In this document: positions 20,233-26,100 of the stretch, piece by piece
Layout: each line of letters begins with the position of its first letter
How positions within the stretch are numbered: the first letter of the stretch is position 1
Origin: an uncultured Candidatus Peribacteria bacterium
Lineage (GTDB): Bacteria > Patescibacteriota > Gracilibacteria > UM-FILTER-43-11
Assembly: GCA_964571805.1 (NCBI GenBank)
Contig: CAZNDI010000002.1
Coordinates: 1 to 39,511, forward strand
Reading direction: 5' to 3'
DNA: 39,511 bases
Position numbers and translations under genes: made by a program
Notes under the pieces: model-generated
The model's input: only the letters and a program-made list of their open reading frames with translations
What the model was told of the DNA's origin: nothing
The model's database searches: none

Positions 20233-21624
20233 TCAACCATCAAAGCCATCTAAAGAGTCTACAGGATTCTTATTAACTCTTATTCCACCTTTTGGTTTTT
20301 GCTTGGCCTCGGCGTCAAGTCTTGCTTTCAACTCAGAATCTGTAATGGTGACTTTTGCAGGGTCAACTTTGGCAGGCACTTCGGGGGGAGTGGCTTCGGG
20401 GGTTGCTGGTTTGGAAACTCTGGCTTCGGGTTTTGGAGGACTGACATCGGTTACCGCGTCGACTTTTTTGGGTGCCTTTTGAATTTCATCCGGTGTGACA
20501 GGTTTAAGATTCTCGGGTCGAACTTGATTTACGGCGACGAGAGGTGGTTTTTCTGGGGTAGCGGGACTAGCTTCAGACGTGCTTGTAAAAAGCTTATCCA
20601 GCTCAGGATCACCGGTTATCGTTTTCTTCCGCGTCTCAGCTAATTTAGCGGCTTCTTCGCTCACTTTTTCGTTGGCCTTGGCCTCGAGACGTTTTTTATA
20701 GTCTCTTTTGGCCGTTGCGATTTGATCAAAGCTCATGGCTGTATCAAAGGTTCCCGTCTCCACCATCTTATCTGTCCTGACAGCCAACTCTGTAGCCACT
20801 TTTAAATTCTCATCCAAAGCTTTTTCTAGTTCTGCATTGGCTTTTCTTGTCATTTCCTTTCGAGCCAGTTTTTCCTCCTCTGTTTCAGGGATGGCCGCAG
20901 TAGGCTCAACTTGGGCCTGTTCCACTTGTGCGACAGACTCAGCGGCCACGTCGGGTGAGGAAGTGACAGATTCAGGGCCACGTGATGCCATTTTTGTTGA
21001 ATTTTGAGCCATGGCTTGGGCGAGGAATTCTTCAAAAGGTTTTTCTTTTAGGCTAAAAACTGCAATGCGGTCGAGGGCTAGTTGGGCAACTTCTCCGTGG
21101 ACTCCAGGTTGTCCTTTTGTGGCTTCGAGCATTTTCATCATGGCTTGCATGGCGGGGAAGTTTGCGGCTTGCTTGTAGGATTCAAATTGATCGGCAATGG
21201 CGTACATGCCTTCGGTTTTTTCGGTGAGGGCGAAAAGGTTGTCGAGGAGCTCTTTTTCATTTAGGGGGACTTTTGCTTTGATTTGATCTATGGTTTGTTG
21301 GGCCAGTGTGGCTTTTTCACCGCCTTCATTTACAAAATCTTCTAAAGTTCCAAGCATGAGCTTGATGGTTTCTTCTCTGCCACCCTCTTTGACTAAGGTG
21401 TCAACGACGTTTAAAAGGAGGTCAATATTCCCACTGGTAATCAGATCTTTTGTGATTGTTTTTTGCTGCTCAGCTTCCGCTTCAGAAACCTTTGTATCTC
21501 CTTCATCTTCAATGATCACAATATCCTCCATTCCTACGGATGGTTTTGGGGATTCCGGGGGCTTAGGGCCTTGACCCATTGCCTCCTTGATATCCTGTGA
21601 TTCTCGGCCCTTGGGTCCTGACAT
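20233..21624 (-). CDS. Hypothetical acidic protein with Pro/Lys-rich C-terminal tail (operon gene 7)
   Basis: 463-aa ORF. No TM segment or signal peptide by eye. Helical repeat-like N-terminal half, coiled-coil middle, PxxP/K-rich tail. Confidence 0.6.
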   Translation of the reverse strand: MSGPKGRESQDIKEAMGQGPKPPESPKPSVGMEDIVIIEDEGDTKVSEAEAEQQKTITKDLITSGNIDLLLNVVDTLVKEGGREETIKLMLGTLEDFVNEGGEKATLAQQTIDQIKAKVPLNEKELLDNLFALTEKTEGMYAIADQFESYKQAANFPAMQAMMKMLEATKGQPGVHGEVAQLALDRIAVFSLKEKPFEEFLAQAMAQNSTKMASRGPESVTSSPDVAAESVAQVEQAQVEPTAAIPETEEEKLARKEMTRKANAELEKALDENLKVATELAVRTDKMVETGTFDTAMSFDQIATAKRDYKKRLEAKANEKVSEEAAKLAETRKKTITGDPELDKLFTSTSEASPATPEKPPLVAVNQVRPENLKPVTPDEIQKAPKKVDAVTDVSPPKPEARVSKPATPEATPPEVPAKVDPAKVTITDSELKARLDAEAKQKPKGGIRVNKNPVDSLDGFDG

Positions 21625-21629
21625 ACTAA

Positions 21630-22262
21630 TTAATTTTTTGATTGTCTATAAAGCGTCCCGTTTTTTGAGTAAACATAGAGAGTATCACCGTATTTATTTC
21701 CATAAACATCATTATTTTTGCCAATCTTTTTACTCAACTGTGCAGCAATTTTTTCTTCCTCGGGTGTTTTATTTTCAACTTCTTCATAACTTCTCATGCC
21801 AAAAGCATCTTCTACTGCCTTTTCAATAGCTTCACTGTCTTTTGTAGCTTCTTGATCATTATCTTCAATTTTATCCCCCCTAAAAGCATACCATTCGTCT
21901 CCTGATCTTTTGATTTCACTCAAATCACCCTTTTTTACGATAGTCCCAACTCTAAATAATACTACCTTGTATTCATAATTGTTATATTCTACCCCCACTG
22001 GCACACCAGCTACTAAGCCCTGAGGATTTGCTTCCTTTGCCAATTTAATTGCTGCCTTTCCATCCGTTTTTTTAGATACATCCTCATAATCTTTATACTT
22101 TTCAAGTTCAGCCCTCATATCTTCTTCCGTATGAAGAGTTTCTGACTTAGAATGCTGATTACTCATTTGTTCTCCACGTAGAGGCATGACTCCTTCAAGC
22201 TTTTGCTGAGCACTCTTACCTTCTGGGCCTCTTTTTAGGGCTTCAAAATCTTTATTTTCCAT
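21630..22262 (-). CDS. Hypothetical protein (operon gene 6)
   Basis: 210-aa ORF with a 5-nt gap to the next gene. No motif recognised. Confidence 0.6.
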   Translation of the reverse strand: MENKDFEALKRGPEGKSAQQKLEGVMPLRGEQMSNQHSKSETLHTEEDMRAELEKYKDYEDVSKKTDGKAAIKLAKEANPQGLVAGVPVGVEYNNYEYKVVLFRVGTIVKKGDLSEIKRSGDEWYAFRGDKIEDNDQEATKDSEAIEKAVEDAFGMRSYEEVENKTPEEEKIAAQLSKKIGKNNDVYGNKYGDTLYVYSKNGTLYRQSKN

Positions 22263-22297
22263 TTTATTTTTATTAGTTTTTAAATCTCAGTATTATA

Positions 22298-22348
22298 TCA
22301 CGAATTGAAGAATTCATCAAGGACGTCGGAGGCGTTTTTTTCGTCTTC
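22298..22348 (-). pseudogene. Displaced original 3' end of the IS-interrupted gene
   Basis: Removing the IS and one TSD copy joins ...EALHKQ to EDEKNASDVLDEFFNS* in frame, with the stop at 22298-22300. Confidence 0.7.
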
Positions 22349-22356
22349 TTGTTTAT
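22349..22356. repeat. Target-site duplication TTGTTTAT (left)
   Basis: The identical 8-mer lies immediately outside both IS ends. Confidence 0.85.
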
Positions 22357-22385
22357 GGATCACCGTCTTTTTAGGGGGATTAAAT
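22357..22385. repeat. IS left terminal inverted repeat
   Basis: GGATCACCGTCTTTTTAGGGGGATTAAAT versus the reverse complement of 23788-23816, GGATCACCCTCTTTTTCGGGGGATTAAAT. Confidence 0.85.
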
Positions 22386-22443
22386 AAATCTACCTTTTAT
22401 TGGTTTATAATGGGTATGGTTTATTTTCTTACCTACATGATTT

Positions 22444-22797
22444 ATGGACCCTGATCTACTGAGCCTGTTCTTACCAAAAGGTATTCTGGAATGGTTTATT
22501 GTAAAAAACATTGAACAACATGGAGAAACGGTGAGGGTTACTTTTGAGGAGAAGAATCTAGTTCCAGAAATACCAGAGAAACATAGAGGCAAGAAAATAA
22601 GTTCTAAAGGTTTCAAAGAGCTCCTGGTCGATGACTTTCCCATTAGAGGAAGGAAAACTGAGCTGCTGTTTTTGAGACGGAGCTGGGAAATTGAGGGGGT
22701 TGAAGAAAGGCTCAAGCGAAACATTAGCCTTTGCGCTCCGGGAACCAAACTGGAAAAAGAATTCGCTGATTTTTTAAAAGAAATGGATCGAGTCTGA
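22444..22797 (+). CDS. ISL3/ISAon1-like transposase, N-terminal region protein (orfA)
   Basis: 117 aa. LLSLFLPKGILEWF...FEEKN..PE....SKGF......DFPIRGRK..L...RR.W...G matches the N-terminal-region proteins of this IS group as I recall them. Confidence 0.75.
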   Translation: MDPDLLSLFLPKGILEWFIVKNIEQHGETVRVTFEEKNLVPEIPEKHRGKKISSKGFKELLVDDFPIRGRKTELLFLRRSWEIEGVEERLKRNISLCAPGTKLEKEFADFLKEMDRV

Positions 22798-23785
22798 ACC
22801 CGTTGAGATCAGTCGCATAGCTAAATGGAACCTCCTAAACCCTGAAGTCCTCCAGAAACAGTACAAAGATCACCTGAGTGATTTCCCGGAGTGGGATCAA
22901 AAGGATCATTGCCTGACCTATCTCCTCTTCCCTGATAACTTAGGCTCAAGGCTCAGCATTGATGAAACCGCCTTGAGTAACGGTGAGCTTTACACCATCA
23001 TCACCAACAAGGATGCCAAAGGAAGGAAGGGATCTCTTGTAGCCATGGTCAAAGGAACCAAGGCAAGCATAGTCAGTGAGATCTTGATGAAGCTACCAGT
23101 CAGTGAAAGGATGAAAGTCCTAGAAGTAACATTGGACATGAGTAACGCGATGGATTGGATCACCCGGGAGAGTTTTCCCAACGCCCAAAAGGTCACGGAT
23201 AGGTTCCATGTCCAAAAGCTCGTATCTGAAGCCCTTCAGGAGATGAGGATTAAAGAAAGGTGGAAAGCCATCGATGAGGAAACAGAGCTCATACTAAAAT
23301 GCCAAAAGGAAAAAAGAAGCTACAAGCCCGAGCTCTACAAAAACGGAGACACAAAAAAGCAGCTTCTGGCCAGAAGCAGATACCTTCTCTTCAAGCCCCA
23401 GAGCAAGTGGAAAGAATCACAAAAACAAAGGGCCCAGATCCTGTTCACTGTCTTCCCTGAGCTGGAAGAAGGTTACAAGCTCTCCATGATGTTCCGTTCC
23501 TTCTACCATCACAGTAAGACCAGGGAAGAAGGAAAAGAAAGGTTGAATCAGTGGTATGGGAAGGTGGAGGAAAAGATTGAAAATAAAGATTCCTTCAAAA
23601 CCTTCACCACCGCGATGCAATCAGTGAAAGCCCATGAAGGCACCATCCTCAACTACTTCCCTGAAAGATCTACTAATGCTTCAGCGGAATCCTTCAATGC
23701 AAAACTCAAGGGATTTAGAGCTCTAGTGCGAGGAGTGAGTGACATGAAGTTCTTCTTATACAGAATCACTACTTTTTTTGGTTAA
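22778..23785 (+). CDS. ISL3-family transposase catalytic region (orfB; no canonical start codon, +1 frame relative to orfA)
   Basis: The frame is open from 22778. The ORF track starts at the TTG at 22973. Motifs: LSIDETAL, VTLDMSNAM...FPNAQKVTDRFHVQK, STNASAESFNAKLK. Confidence 0.8.
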   Translation, partial: KKWIESEPVEISRIAKWNLLNPEVLQKQYKDHLSDFPEWDQKDHCLTYLLFPDNLGSRLSIDETALSNGELYTIITNKDAKGRKGSLVAMVKGTKASIVSEILMKLPVSERMKVLEVTLDMSNAMDWITRESFPNAQKVTDRFHVQKLVSEALQEMRIKERWKAIDEETELILKCQKEKRSYKPELYKNGDTKKQLLARSRYLLFKPQSKWKESQKQRAQILFTVFPELEEGYKLSMMFRSFYHHSKTREEGKERLNQWYGKVEEKIENKDSFKTFTTAMQSVKAHEGTILNYFPERSTNASAESFNAKLKGFRALVRGVSDMKFFLYRITTFFG

Positions 23786-23787
23786 AC

Positions 23788-23816
23788 ATTTAATCCCCCG
23801 AAAAAGAGGGTGATCC
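23788..23816. repeat. IS right terminal inverted repeat
   Basis: See the left inverted repeat; 27/29 complementary. Confidence 0.85.
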
Positions 23817-24077
23817 TTGTTTATGGAGGGCTTCTTCTTGCCTCATGGCCCCTACTTTTTCTTTCGCCTGAAAAAAGACATCTTGTTTTTTCTCTGATTC
23901 TGCGAGGATTTTTTGGTCTTCAGCCCGGATGTTCTCCATAGCTATTTCAAGATCAGCATCGGGGCGATCGCTATAATTCAAACAAGCCTTCTGAATTTCC
24001 TCATCCGTTAAGCCCTTAAAATAGAGCGAGCTTTTGGCGACATGGAAGAGGGATTGTAAGGTCGATTCGGAGGCCAT
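23790..24077 (-). pseudogene. Operon gene 5, 3' end replaced by IS-derived codons
   Basis: The ORF runs into the IS right end. The last 8 codons (GSPSFSGD*) are encoded by the IS inverted repeat. Confidence 0.7.
23817..23824. repeat. Target-site duplication TTGTTTAT (right)
   Basis: Identical to 22349-22356. Confidence 0.85.
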
Positions 24078-24088
24078 TTTTTGCTGTA

Positions 24089-24244
24089 TTAACTTTTTTT
24101 GACTAGGCTATACAAGTCTTCGATTAATTTTTCCGCAATTGCTTGACCAATCACGTTGCTGTAGGCCTGCTGATAGCTTTTTCCCAGCTTCATTTGGGCT
24201 ACAATTTGATCGCCAAAAAGTTTTATAAGGGCTTCATCTTTCAT
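24089..24244 (-). CDS. Small hypothetical protein (51 aa; operon gene 4), below the ORF-track threshold
   Basis: Hand translation: MKDEALIKLFGDQIVAQMKLGKSYQQAYSNVIGQAIAEKLIEDLYSLVKKS. The ATG directly follows the upstream TAA. 11-nt gap to the next start. Confidence 0.45.
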   Translation of the reverse strand: MKDEALIKLFGDQIVAQMKLGKSYQQAYSNVIGQAIAEKLIEDLYSLVKKS

Positions 24245-24796
24245 TTAAGCGTTTAAACGTTGAGTTACATACTTCTGAATTTCTTCTTGATTTGCAGTGG
24301 CTTTGGCAGCGAATTCTTGTATATCCTCAGCAATAGTCACTGCTCGTTCGGGATAATTTTTTAATTCTGTCGTAAGATTACCCTTTAAAATTGCCACCAC
24401 GTCATTAGCCAAAGCTCTTTCTGCGGTATCTAGATTGAGCTGCGGGTGACTTATGATTGCCTCGACCACCTCTCCTAAATCAAGTTGCTCCTTTGAATTT
24501 GAATTAGACTCGGTTCTGGAGACGGTTGAAAGAGGTGTTAATGGCCTAGGGGTTTTAATTTTTGTTTGATCCACATTCTTTTCTTTCTTTTGCAATTCAC
24601 GCCTAAGGTCTTCTAAATCTTCCTGCCTCTTCCTTTCACGCTCTTGTTCTCCATGTGTGATTCTTTCTAATTCTTCTTGTTGAAGAGTGTCAGGGATATC
24701 CTGGATGTCCCTATAATTTGGCAATTCTGCCAACCCACGGTCATCATCCTCTTCACGACCCGTCGCTCCATTTAAATTTAATCCATCGAGTGCCAT
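24245..24796 (-). CDS. Hypothetical acidic coiled-coil protein (operon gene 3)
   Basis: 183-aa ORF with highly charged E/R/K/D stretches. No motif recognised. Confidence 0.6.
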   Translation of the reverse strand: MALDGLNLNGATGREEDDDRGLAELPNYRDIQDIPDTLQQEELERITHGEQERERKRQEDLEDLRRELQKKEKNVDQTKIKTPRPLTPLSTVSRTESNSNSKEQLDLGEVVEAIISHPQLNLDTAERALANDVVAILKGNLTTELKNYPERAVTIAEDIQEFAAKATANQEEIQKYVTQRLNA

Positions 24797-24856
24797 TTTT
24801 GTTTATTTTAGAAATATTTATATATTCTTCTACCTCCCAATTAAATTAAAAGAGAA

Positions 24857-25210
24857 TTATGAATTGCCTTTGTCTAATTTATCTTTATTTTTAGGTTTTT
24901 TTGTTTCTAATGCTACCTTGGGATCATCCTTATTTTCTGCATATAATTCGTAAGTGGGCATGGATGCTTCGTAGGTAGGTATTGACGCTTCATAAATCGG
25001 AATGCCATCAAAGCCTATACCCAATACCCCTTTAACCAGCTTACTAGCCCTTTCTTGAGCAATTCTTGTTTGCATTTCTGCTTCACTTTTTAATCCTAGA
25101 GTTTTTCTTTGTGCTTCATTTTTCCCATCATGCAGGCGCGGACTTAAATCACTTAAATTTCTAGCTTTTTCATTATCTCCCCGTGGCATTGACTCTGCAT
25201 GGTCAGCCAT
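24857..25210 (-). CDS. Hypothetical protein with YEAS(I/M)PT repeat (operon gene 2)
   Basis: 117-aa ORF containing IPIYEASIPTYEASMPTYELY. Confidence 0.55.
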   Translation of the reverse strand: MADHAESMPRGDNEKARNLSDLSPRLHDGKNEAQRKTLGLKSEAEMQTRIAQERASKLVKGVLGIGFDGIPIYEASIPTYEASMPTYELYAENKDDPKVALETKKPKNKDKLDKGNS

Positions 25211-25254
25211 AATAGGTTTTAATTTTTATTAATCTTTTCATTATACCAAAATTC

Positions 25255-25581
25255 CTACAGACTTGCAAGCTCCTGTTCCAAATCAAAACTTTGGGTCTCC
25301 TGTTCTTTTCTAATCTCCTCCAACGCTTGACGCATCTTGGAGGATTGAAAATTAAGCAACTGCTTCAACTCCGACAAAGTCCCATCCAACTCCCCCTTCT
25401 GATCGAGCAAAATCCTCTCCCGCCCCTCCTTATCCTCCTCCGGCACCCCCTCCAATTTCTTCAAGGTCTTCTTCTTAATATCCTCACAATGCCCCTTAAA
25501 CGCCACCCGCACATGCTCAAAAAAATCATGATACTTCGTCATCGTCTCTTCATACCGCAATTGAAATTCATCGTTGTTCAT
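25255..25581 (-). CDS. Hypothetical coiled-coil protein (operon gene 1)
   Basis: The ATG at 25581 (MNNDEFQLRYEE...) is preferred. The longer track ORF would read through the GC-rich repeat at 25619-25645. Confidence 0.6.
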   Translation of the reverse strand: MNNDEFQLRYEETMTKYHDFFEHVRVAFKGHCEDIKKKTLKKLEGVPEEDKEGRERILLDQKGELDGTLSELKQLLNFQSSKMRQALEEIRKEQETQSFDLEQELASL

Positions 25582-25814: not shown

Positions 25815-26100
25815 TCCGCCGCGGCGGACTGGGGGAGGTCCCTTGCCAACTGAAAACGGTCCCCTTTTCGGATCATTATAACACAATTCTTGAATCAATT
25901 CAAGTTCTATCAAATGAAAAACAGTAGAAAAGAAAATCCGGGTTAGGTAGTATCTTCATTAGCGTAATTAAAATTTCAAAGTTACGGTCTAAAACACATC
26001 CAAAAAAACAAAAAAATTATTTCACCTACCCATTACCCTTTGACCCCCTCTATTTTGGAGGAACAGAGGAAGGTCCCCTTTAATTTTTAATTTTCGAGGT

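Follow-up and report, generated by a model that had tools for sequence, protein, structure and literature searches.

In type IV coupling complexes such as that of the Dot/Icm system, small acidic adaptors and C-terminally tagged, unfolded client proteins meet at a coupling protein. Much of bacterial diversity belongs to the Patescibacteria – the Candidate Phyla Radiation (CPR) – which rely on host cells, although the means by which they act on those hosts are largely unknown. According to one survey, their genomes encode about two VirD4-like type IV coupling proteins (T4CPs) each, mostly distant from virB4, without relaxases and with unknown substrates (PMC12102498). Here we describe seven co-directional genes, A to G, occupying positions 20233-25581 on the minus strand of a 39,511-nucleotide (nt) stretch of DNA (the window) from an uncultured Candidatus Peribacteria bacterium. 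The window is the entire contig C2 of a metagenome-assembled genome of 1.06 Mb in 127 contigs, estimated as 88% complete. In the comparisons below the block emerges as a fast-evolving operon, specific to its lineage, in a Gracilibacteria/Peregrinibacteria-like CPR bacterium. We consider it quite possible, if short of probable, that its products work as adaptors and clients with an orphan coupling ATPase, referred to here as T4CP-1.

The block was compared with related genomes or loci (G001, G002, L130, L133 and L148, of which L148 is the closest) and with L129, a second assembly of the studied organism. Each of the seven genes is matched by homologues that hold the corresponding place in genus-level relatives, and in every such relative examined the block adjoins ppdK-pdxST-murI. 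L148 reads murI-pdxT-pdxS-PpdK, A, B, B′, a fused C+D, E, F and G as two genes (G-N and G-C), with T4CP-1 220 bp beyond the block and everything from A to T4CP-1 on one strand. The order in L133 is PpdK, A, a gene for a protein of 463 amino acids (aa), C, D, E, F, G, a minus-strand MGMT gene and a T4CP gene, and in L130 it is PpdK, A, a 424-aa gene, C, D, G, MGMT (minus strand) and T4CP. G001 has PpdK, A, genes of 124, 668, 185 and 153 aa, E, F, G, a 116-aa gene, MGMT (minus strand) and T4CP, and G002 has a variant of the same layout in which E and F have moved out of the ppdK-linked block. Block genes have been duplicated, fused, split, replaced or lost between species while the order persists, and this conservation makes a shared function plausible. 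Six related loci extend past the block, and in all of them a T4CP gene lies close to its end: it follows directly in L148, whereas the MGMT gene comes first in L130 and L133. The operon thus stands just upstream of T4CP-1 in relatives, in many cases sharing its strand. This adjacency is the most informative context of the block; it is not visible inside the window, and an earlier sequence-only reading missed it.

That reading had instead called the genes ORFans and taken their position beside an integration hotspot as a sign of an accessory locus, suggesting that gene order be checked in relatives. The order is kept in genus-level relatives, where B, C, D, F and G all have homologues, and A and E belong to wider families (below), so that the label ORFan does not apply. 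A horizontally acquired island of defence or mobile cargo would accord with the tRNA-Gly and serine-recombinase element that flank the block here, with the insertion sequence (IS) within it, and with gene content that varies between species. However, the tRNA-Gly/serine-recombinase neighbourhood next to G occurs only in the studied organism (the window and L129) and in none of the relatives; it reflects a local rearrangement rather than the native context of the block, which adjoins ppdK in all genus-level relatives with neither tRNA nor island, and the presence of A through most of the family also speaks against acquisition as an island. The GC content of the block genes (0.39-0.46) lies inside the range of the window, and no paralogue or second copy of any block gene was found in the studied genome. 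Nothing rose above noise when the seven proteins were searched against Pfam, NCBIfam, PHROGs and PADLOC, and with E ≤ 0.01 no PADLOC defence model and no PHROGs phage family matched any of them, which speaks against the defence and phage-structural identities that had been raised. We therefore regard an island origin as very improbable, the conserved synteny already contradicting it. A comparison of the intergenic DNA between G and the tRNA gene with relatives and with contig C80 (see below) gave no informative match for the rearrangement breakpoint.

By Pfam cut-offs, the ATPase neighbouring the block in relatives is a VirD4/TraG/TrwB coupling protein: the G001 protein scores 35.4 bits against TrwB_AAD_bind (cut-off 20.5), 30.6 against T4SS-DNA_transf (20.1) and 22.9 against TraG-D_C (22), and DUF8128 is present. 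We use the name T4CP-1 for this block-linked, VirD4/TraG-like ATPase with a DUF8128 N-terminal domain. The NCBIfam TraD and CD1115 equivalogs score far under their cut-offs, which makes T4CP-1 a distant subfamily. The studied organism belongs to a family of small genomes (0.7-1.9 Mb), for which counts were taken over 31 genomes in 17 genera; as a taxonomic marker ppdK was uninformative, being exchanged too widely. All 31 contain at least one match to the G001 ATPase, and the matches form about four identity groups, T4CP-1 to T4CP-4. Of these, T4CP-1 most resembles the G001 query, mostly at 70-85% identity, while T4CP-2 stands at about 47-50%. No more than 8 kb separates A from T4CP-1 in 10 of the 26 genomes that carry A, representing five genera. 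In L114 the two are co-directional and separated by 162 nt; in L140 a single gene stands between them, and L149 has E, F, A, one gene and T4CP-1. A second, independent link is provided by G002, in which an E-F pair lies 20 nt downstream of T4CP-2 (T4SS-DNA_transf, 51.8 bits, 7.7e-14); on this contig (C16, L136:5695-8921) T4CP-2 is followed by the E and F homologues with gaps of 20 and 42 nt. The studied genome has its own intact T4CP-1 ortholog, 79% identical to that of G001 and with a Pro-rich C-terminal tail, on the minus strand of a separate contig (C80:109-2685), indicating that the ancestral linkage between block and T4CP has been broken in this organism. The ortholog on the 4.6-kb C80 stands beside a divergent 570-aa protein with a signal peptide.

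Linkage to a coupling ATPase could also reflect a role in handling nucleic acids, with the block proteins acting within the cell as relaxosome-accessory-like factors or DNA mimics during DNA uptake or transfer. Coupling proteins are ancestrally DNA-transfer motors whose genes commonly lie near relaxase or accessory genes, as the same survey states (PMC12102498), a DNA-repair MGMT-domain gene intervenes between block and T4CP-1 in many relatives, and strongly acidic proteins can mimic DNA. Acidic charge nevertheless speaks against direct DNA binding, Pfam and NCBIfam scans found no relaxase, helix-turn-helix, ribbon-helix-helix or other nucleic-acid-binding domain in any member, and the MGMT gene, which runs on the opposite strand, is missing from L148 and L149. 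We consider such a role improbable. The intervening gene encodes an MGMT-type DNA_binding_1 protein of roughly 100 aa in several relatives (L091:1841-2146, L092:3595-3894, L130:6744-7043 and L133:5772-6059).

Gene A, the anchor of the block, is near-universal in the family, being present in 26 of the 31 family genomes and 15 of the 17 genera. In a set of 1.84 billion representative proteins it accounts for 123 representative clusters, almost all of 95-120 aa. An alignment of 25 homologues backs the ATG at 25581 and shows F28 and C32 to be invariant, within a motif AFxxHCExI, together with a conserved C-terminus, (F)DLExELAx(L/V). The AlphaFold2 model (predicted local distance difference test score, pLDDT, 92) consists of two antiparallel helices, residues 2-44 and 51-107. 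Nothing specific was found among its fold neighbours, the best Foldseek match being to Rad50 coiled coils at E = 0.4, and scanning the 25 homologues singly against Pfam yielded nothing beyond generic coiled-coil noise, for example Apolipoprotein and Exonuc_VII_L. A relationship between A and E was excluded by profile-profile comparison. In G003, G007 and G012, where A lies beside rpmA and the T4CP-1 neighbourhood was examined, a highly conserved 200-aa protein with no Pfam match is encoded directly upstream of T4CP-1 (L143:6144-6761, L144:9961-10560 and L145:155-802; C18:3959-4537 in the studied genome). It ends DLExELDI, resembling the A C-terminus FDLEQELASL.

Gene E is split by an ISL3-family element; that an IS had struck the block was already noted from the window alone. 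Three features place the element in ISL3: a DDE_Tnp_ISL3 transposase, inverted terminal repeats of about 28 bp, and a duplicated 8-bp target, TTGTTTAT, found at both 22349-22356 and 23817-23824. The element is a single copy in the 1.06-Mb assembly and is probably already decaying; its transposase is in two plus-strand open reading frames (ORFs), 22444-22797 (117 aa) and 22973-23785 (270 aa), about 175 nt apart. L129, the sole other assembly of the organism, carries the identical insertion, and no IS-free copy of the locus was found. When the flanks are rejoined they specify a 103-aa protein that can be aligned along its whole length with homologues of 49-55% identity, every one of them also 103 aa long. 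The length of E is exactly 103 aa in nine genomes of four genera; 21 of its positions are invariant, and its tip, (I/V/M)L(D/E)(D/E)(L/F/I)F(N/K)x, is conserved. A collection of 5.8 billion proteins contains 55 clusters of E, all unnamed, with homologues labelled 'Patescibacteria group bacterium'.

The remaining genes are more restricted. No position in the operon varies more than that of B, where other relatives carry unrelated acidic proteins of 124-668 aa; its only homologues found are two tandem paralogues in L148, 51% identical over the first 65 aa and sharing the N-terminus MAxxAExMPRGE. C has homologues of 33-34% identity at the matching position in L130 and L133, and D has homologues of 50-53% identity in the same two loci; D is fused with C in L135 and in L148, in which C is joined to a D-like C-terminus to give 250 aa. 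F homologues, 29-34% identical, follow E in G001, G002, L133 and L148, and a search of the 5.8 billion proteins returned only sequences already known. The F model has a pLDDT of 72 overall and about 80-89 across residues 41-210, with no Foldseek match below E = 0.2. G matches L133_372 at 32% identity (E = 3e-38) and, less strongly, G001 and L130. Its place in relatives is at the end of the block or one gene before it, ahead of the T4CP-1 region. No match to the G profile was found beyond the genus, and G diverges too fast for the whole-genome search tool, which overlooked even the true G001 homologue.

Synonymous sites are saturated relative to all relatives (synonymous difference, pS, 0.64-1.03), so that dN/dS is not estimable. 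Nonsynonymous divergence (dN) rises from 0.13 in PpdK through 0.20-0.32 in A and 0.36-0.47 in E to 0.49-1.15 in C, D, F and G, and at the protein level the block has diverged 1.5 to 8 times as much as its housekeeping neighbour PpdK. Frames, lengths and order have been kept at this saturated divergence, showing that the genes are maintained by selection. Low-complexity, biased composition in several members, the lack of Shine-Dalgarno sequences and the interruption of E could have suggested chance frames or decaying, functionless pseudogenes; given the preserved frames, the deep conservation of A and E with invariant residues, and the confident model of A, this is scarcely credible, and for A and E it is already contradicted.

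Several unrelated block proteins share an acidic-hydrophobic tip, D-x-L-D/E-x-F/L/I. In the studied genome this is seen in E (DVLDEFFNS) and in G (DSLDGFDG at the end and DPELDKLF internally), and in relatives as NDPLAGIS (G of G001), DDPLDGL and DDPLEGI (L130) and DDALDDLF (G002). A loose form of the pattern lies within the last 25 residues of six of 37 block proteins from five loci, as against nine of the 1,228 predicted proteins of the genome, a comparison in which the motif was defined after the sequences had been inspected and the homologous carriers, from about four independent families, are not independent. The six are G and the restored E of the studied genome, G and E of G001, L130_424 and L130_337; the pattern also occurs near the end of L133_372 and twice near the N-terminus of g2_110. 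The comparison is suggestive only. An N-terminal GP[EKS]/PRG motif, present in 12 of 45 block proteins and 22 of 1,228 in the proteome, was discounted as evidence, having been defined post hoc and being inflated by homology.

Other genera have one to three paralogous, acidic, disordered proteins encoded downstream of A (L121:5343-7403, L124:5342-7569, L125:12750-14652 and L116:1492-4976). These share a conserved N-terminus, MKELFNKLSNLFSFGKExRL or MKNLFKNFIDLLFNKRF, and repeats such as GPFEPLDLSEE, and in one genus the acidic proteins have a C-terminal ...TRKPRQ motif. A similar N-terminal motif begins proteins of 630-800 aa encoded near T4CP-1 (L144:2948-4852 and L145:6577-8931).

In the arrangement we propose, A, a helical hairpin, and E, of constant length, would be adaptor- or chaperone-like subunits of the coupling ATPase, with a role analogous rather than homologous to that of the small acidic adaptors IcmS, IcmW and LvgA of the Legionella DotL complex. 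The variable, disordered products of B, C/D, F and G would serve as clients that the complex recognises by peptide motifs at their termini and passes to a translocation channel, plausibly for delivery into the host cell on which such bacteria depend. The likeness to DotL, IcmS, IcmW and LvgA lies in small, soluble, acidic proteins of about 100-200 aa encoded together with a VirD4-family ATPase, and the likeness to Dot/Icm effectors in putative clients that are variable, fast-evolving and partly disordered, are without Sec signals and share a C-terminal acidic/hydrophobic tip. In contrast to Dot/Icm, the setting is a monoderm-like CPR bacterium in which most T4CP genes lie at a distance from virB4, the ATPase gene is not adjacent to the block here, and translocation is only putative. 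Homology to IcmS, IcmW or LvgA was considered and rejected, there being no Pfam or NCBIfam match for A-G and no Foldseek match better than E = 0.4 for A and 0.2 for F.

The type VII (WXG100/ESAT-6) system offers a second comparison, since A is likewise a helix-turn-helix hairpin of about 100 aa associated with a P-loop, translocase-like ATPase and variable partner proteins. The turn of A, LEGVPEEDKEG, is however without WXG, and the ATPase is VirD4/TrwB-like as opposed to the FtsK/SpoIIIE-type EssC. The candidacy of A as a WXG100 substrate was rejected: its alignment shows no WXG, Pfam gives no WXG100 match and the partner ATPase is VirD4-like. The orphan chromosomal T4CP modules of Patescibacteria represent the same phenomenon at the level of the phylum, with several VirD4-like genes per genome, located away from virB4 and lacking a relaxase or an assigned function; the available portion of the report that describes them makes no mention of neighbouring small-protein families, and A, E and the variable block are unnamed in it (PMC12102498).

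Several observations weigh against a role as adaptors and clients. Gene A is not near T4CP-1 in 16 of the 26 family genomes with A, lying beside rpmA where the neighbours were examined, and the T4CP-linked copies form one weakly supported clade (83/61) in the A tree, so that they reflect one ancestral arrangement long retained and not repeated convergence. In the studied genome the block adjoins no T4CP. No PF03135-type VirB4 was found there, and the score of one AAA_10 ATPase just equals the Pfam threshold, which leaves a translocation channel putative. Searches of the family libraries, the PDB and Foldseek found no sequence or fold similarity to a known adaptor, chaperone or effector; PDB profile searches with alignments of A, E, F and G gave nothing below E = 0.049. 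The post hoc definition of the tip motif, described above, belongs here as well. In the one genetically studied patescibacterium, the T4CP is reported to be non-essential for epibiotic growth (PMC12102498).

An alternative is that these are cytoplasmic scaffold or regulatory proteins with no part in secretion, for example disordered hub-binders of the division or chromosome machinery, whose position next to T4CP-1 is passive synteny. FtsZ and SSB bind their partners through acidic-hydrophobic tails, which the block tips resemble, as illustrated by the end of the organism's own FtsZ (...EEDLDVPAFMRKSLKK) and by DDALDDLFLRK in a G002 protein. A is a generic coiled-coil hairpin, and in most genera it neighbours rpmA at a distance from T4CP-1, there too with acidic disordered proteins following it. 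Set against this, the T4CP-1 linkage has been kept across five genera despite saturated synonymous sites, E and F are separately tied to T4CP-2, turnover of genes between species is extreme in a way that is unusual for core cell-biology scaffolds, and the FtsZ-like resemblance comes from a single sequence. On balance a scaffold role appears somewhat unlikely. The FtsZ gene is at C20:2706-3989, and the C-terminal peptide of its product reads EEDLDVPAFMRK, which the block tips faintly recall; the G002 sequence DDALDDLFLRK (L092:3229-3561) resembles the FtsZ partner-binding peptide.

In the studied genome a rearrangement has parted the operon from the T4CP-1 gene, now on C80. If block proteins do act with T4CP-1 as adaptors and clients, the module may be partly disabled in this organism through the separation of T4CP-1 and the truncation of E by the IS. 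The families themselves are undescribed, being unnamed in any source and without a model in the four libraries, whereas T4CP-linked accessory and cargo genes are known from other bacteria. A, E and the short peptide tip offer concrete adaptor and cargo candidates for the orphan CPR coupling proteins, and should the link be functional, the nature of what these ATPases move could be tested directly. Otherwise the block remains a source of several new families of narrow distribution and a case of extreme gene turnover at a fixed chromosomal site. A stronger version, that A, E and their relatives together with the variable disordered proteins would constitute the first identified adaptor-and-cargo set of the orphan coupling ATPases ubiquitous in Patescibacteria, injected into or displayed to hosts, with the terminal peptides as export signal and the turnover as a host arms race, strikes us as unlikely.

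The layout of the block is summarized in Table 1. The seven ORFs begin at 25581, 25210, 24796, 24244, 24077, 22262 and 21624, with intergenic gaps of 44, 60, 0, 11, 35 (IS excised) and 5 nt when recomputed from the coordinates. Starts and gaps agree with the sequence-only reading, whose picture of a tightly packed, truly coding, co-directional block from undescribed families is borne out; its YEAS(I/M)PT repeat in B and Pro/Lys-rich tail in G are also present. It was right, too, that none of the seven proteins has a transmembrane segment, hydropathy peaking at 1.08 in 19-residue windows, and no Sec signal was found in the block proteins. Its description of the proteins as exclusively acidic is contradicted by B and D, with isoelectric points (pI) of 6.75 and 7.98, five of the seven being acidic. 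Disorder-promoting residues make up 51-62% of the block proteins.

Table 1. Positions of the block genes, the interrupting element and the best promoter-like site in the window.
Feature	Coordinates	Strand	Description	Basis
Gene A	25255..25581	-	108 aa; first gene of the operon; small helical-hairpin protein	ORF and homologue alignment
Gene B	24857..25210	-	117 aa; near-neutral pI; Tyr-rich YEAS(I/M)PT repeat	ORF
Gene C	24245..24796	-	183 aa; acidic	ORF
Gene D	24089..24244	-	51 aa; slightly basic; 0-nt gap to C	ORF
Gene E, 5′ part	23817..24077	-	Codons 1-87	E-family profile matches residues 1-88
ISL3-family IS	22357..23816	+	1,460 bp; interrupts E	DDE_Tnp_ISL3 1.9e-45 (Pfam)
Gene E, 3′ remainder	22298..22348	-	Codons 88-103 and stop; tip ...DVLDEFFNS	Profile residues 69-103 at 22301-22405
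Gene F	21630..22262	-	210 aa; disordered N-terminus (motif MP.R.E.M), then alpha/beta domain	ORF, AlphaFold2
Gene G	20233..21624	-	463 aa; acidic; helical N-terminal half, Pro/Lys-rich disordered tail, tip ...NPVDSLDGFDG	
Best sigma-70-like promoter upstream of A	25875..25903	-	TTGAAT-17-TATAAT, extended -10	Consensus match only

Promoter-like sites are no more numerous in the region than expected from shuffled sequence. No Shine-Dalgarno sequence is recognisable in the 25 nt upstream of any of the seven starts, and the leaders are all A/T-rich.

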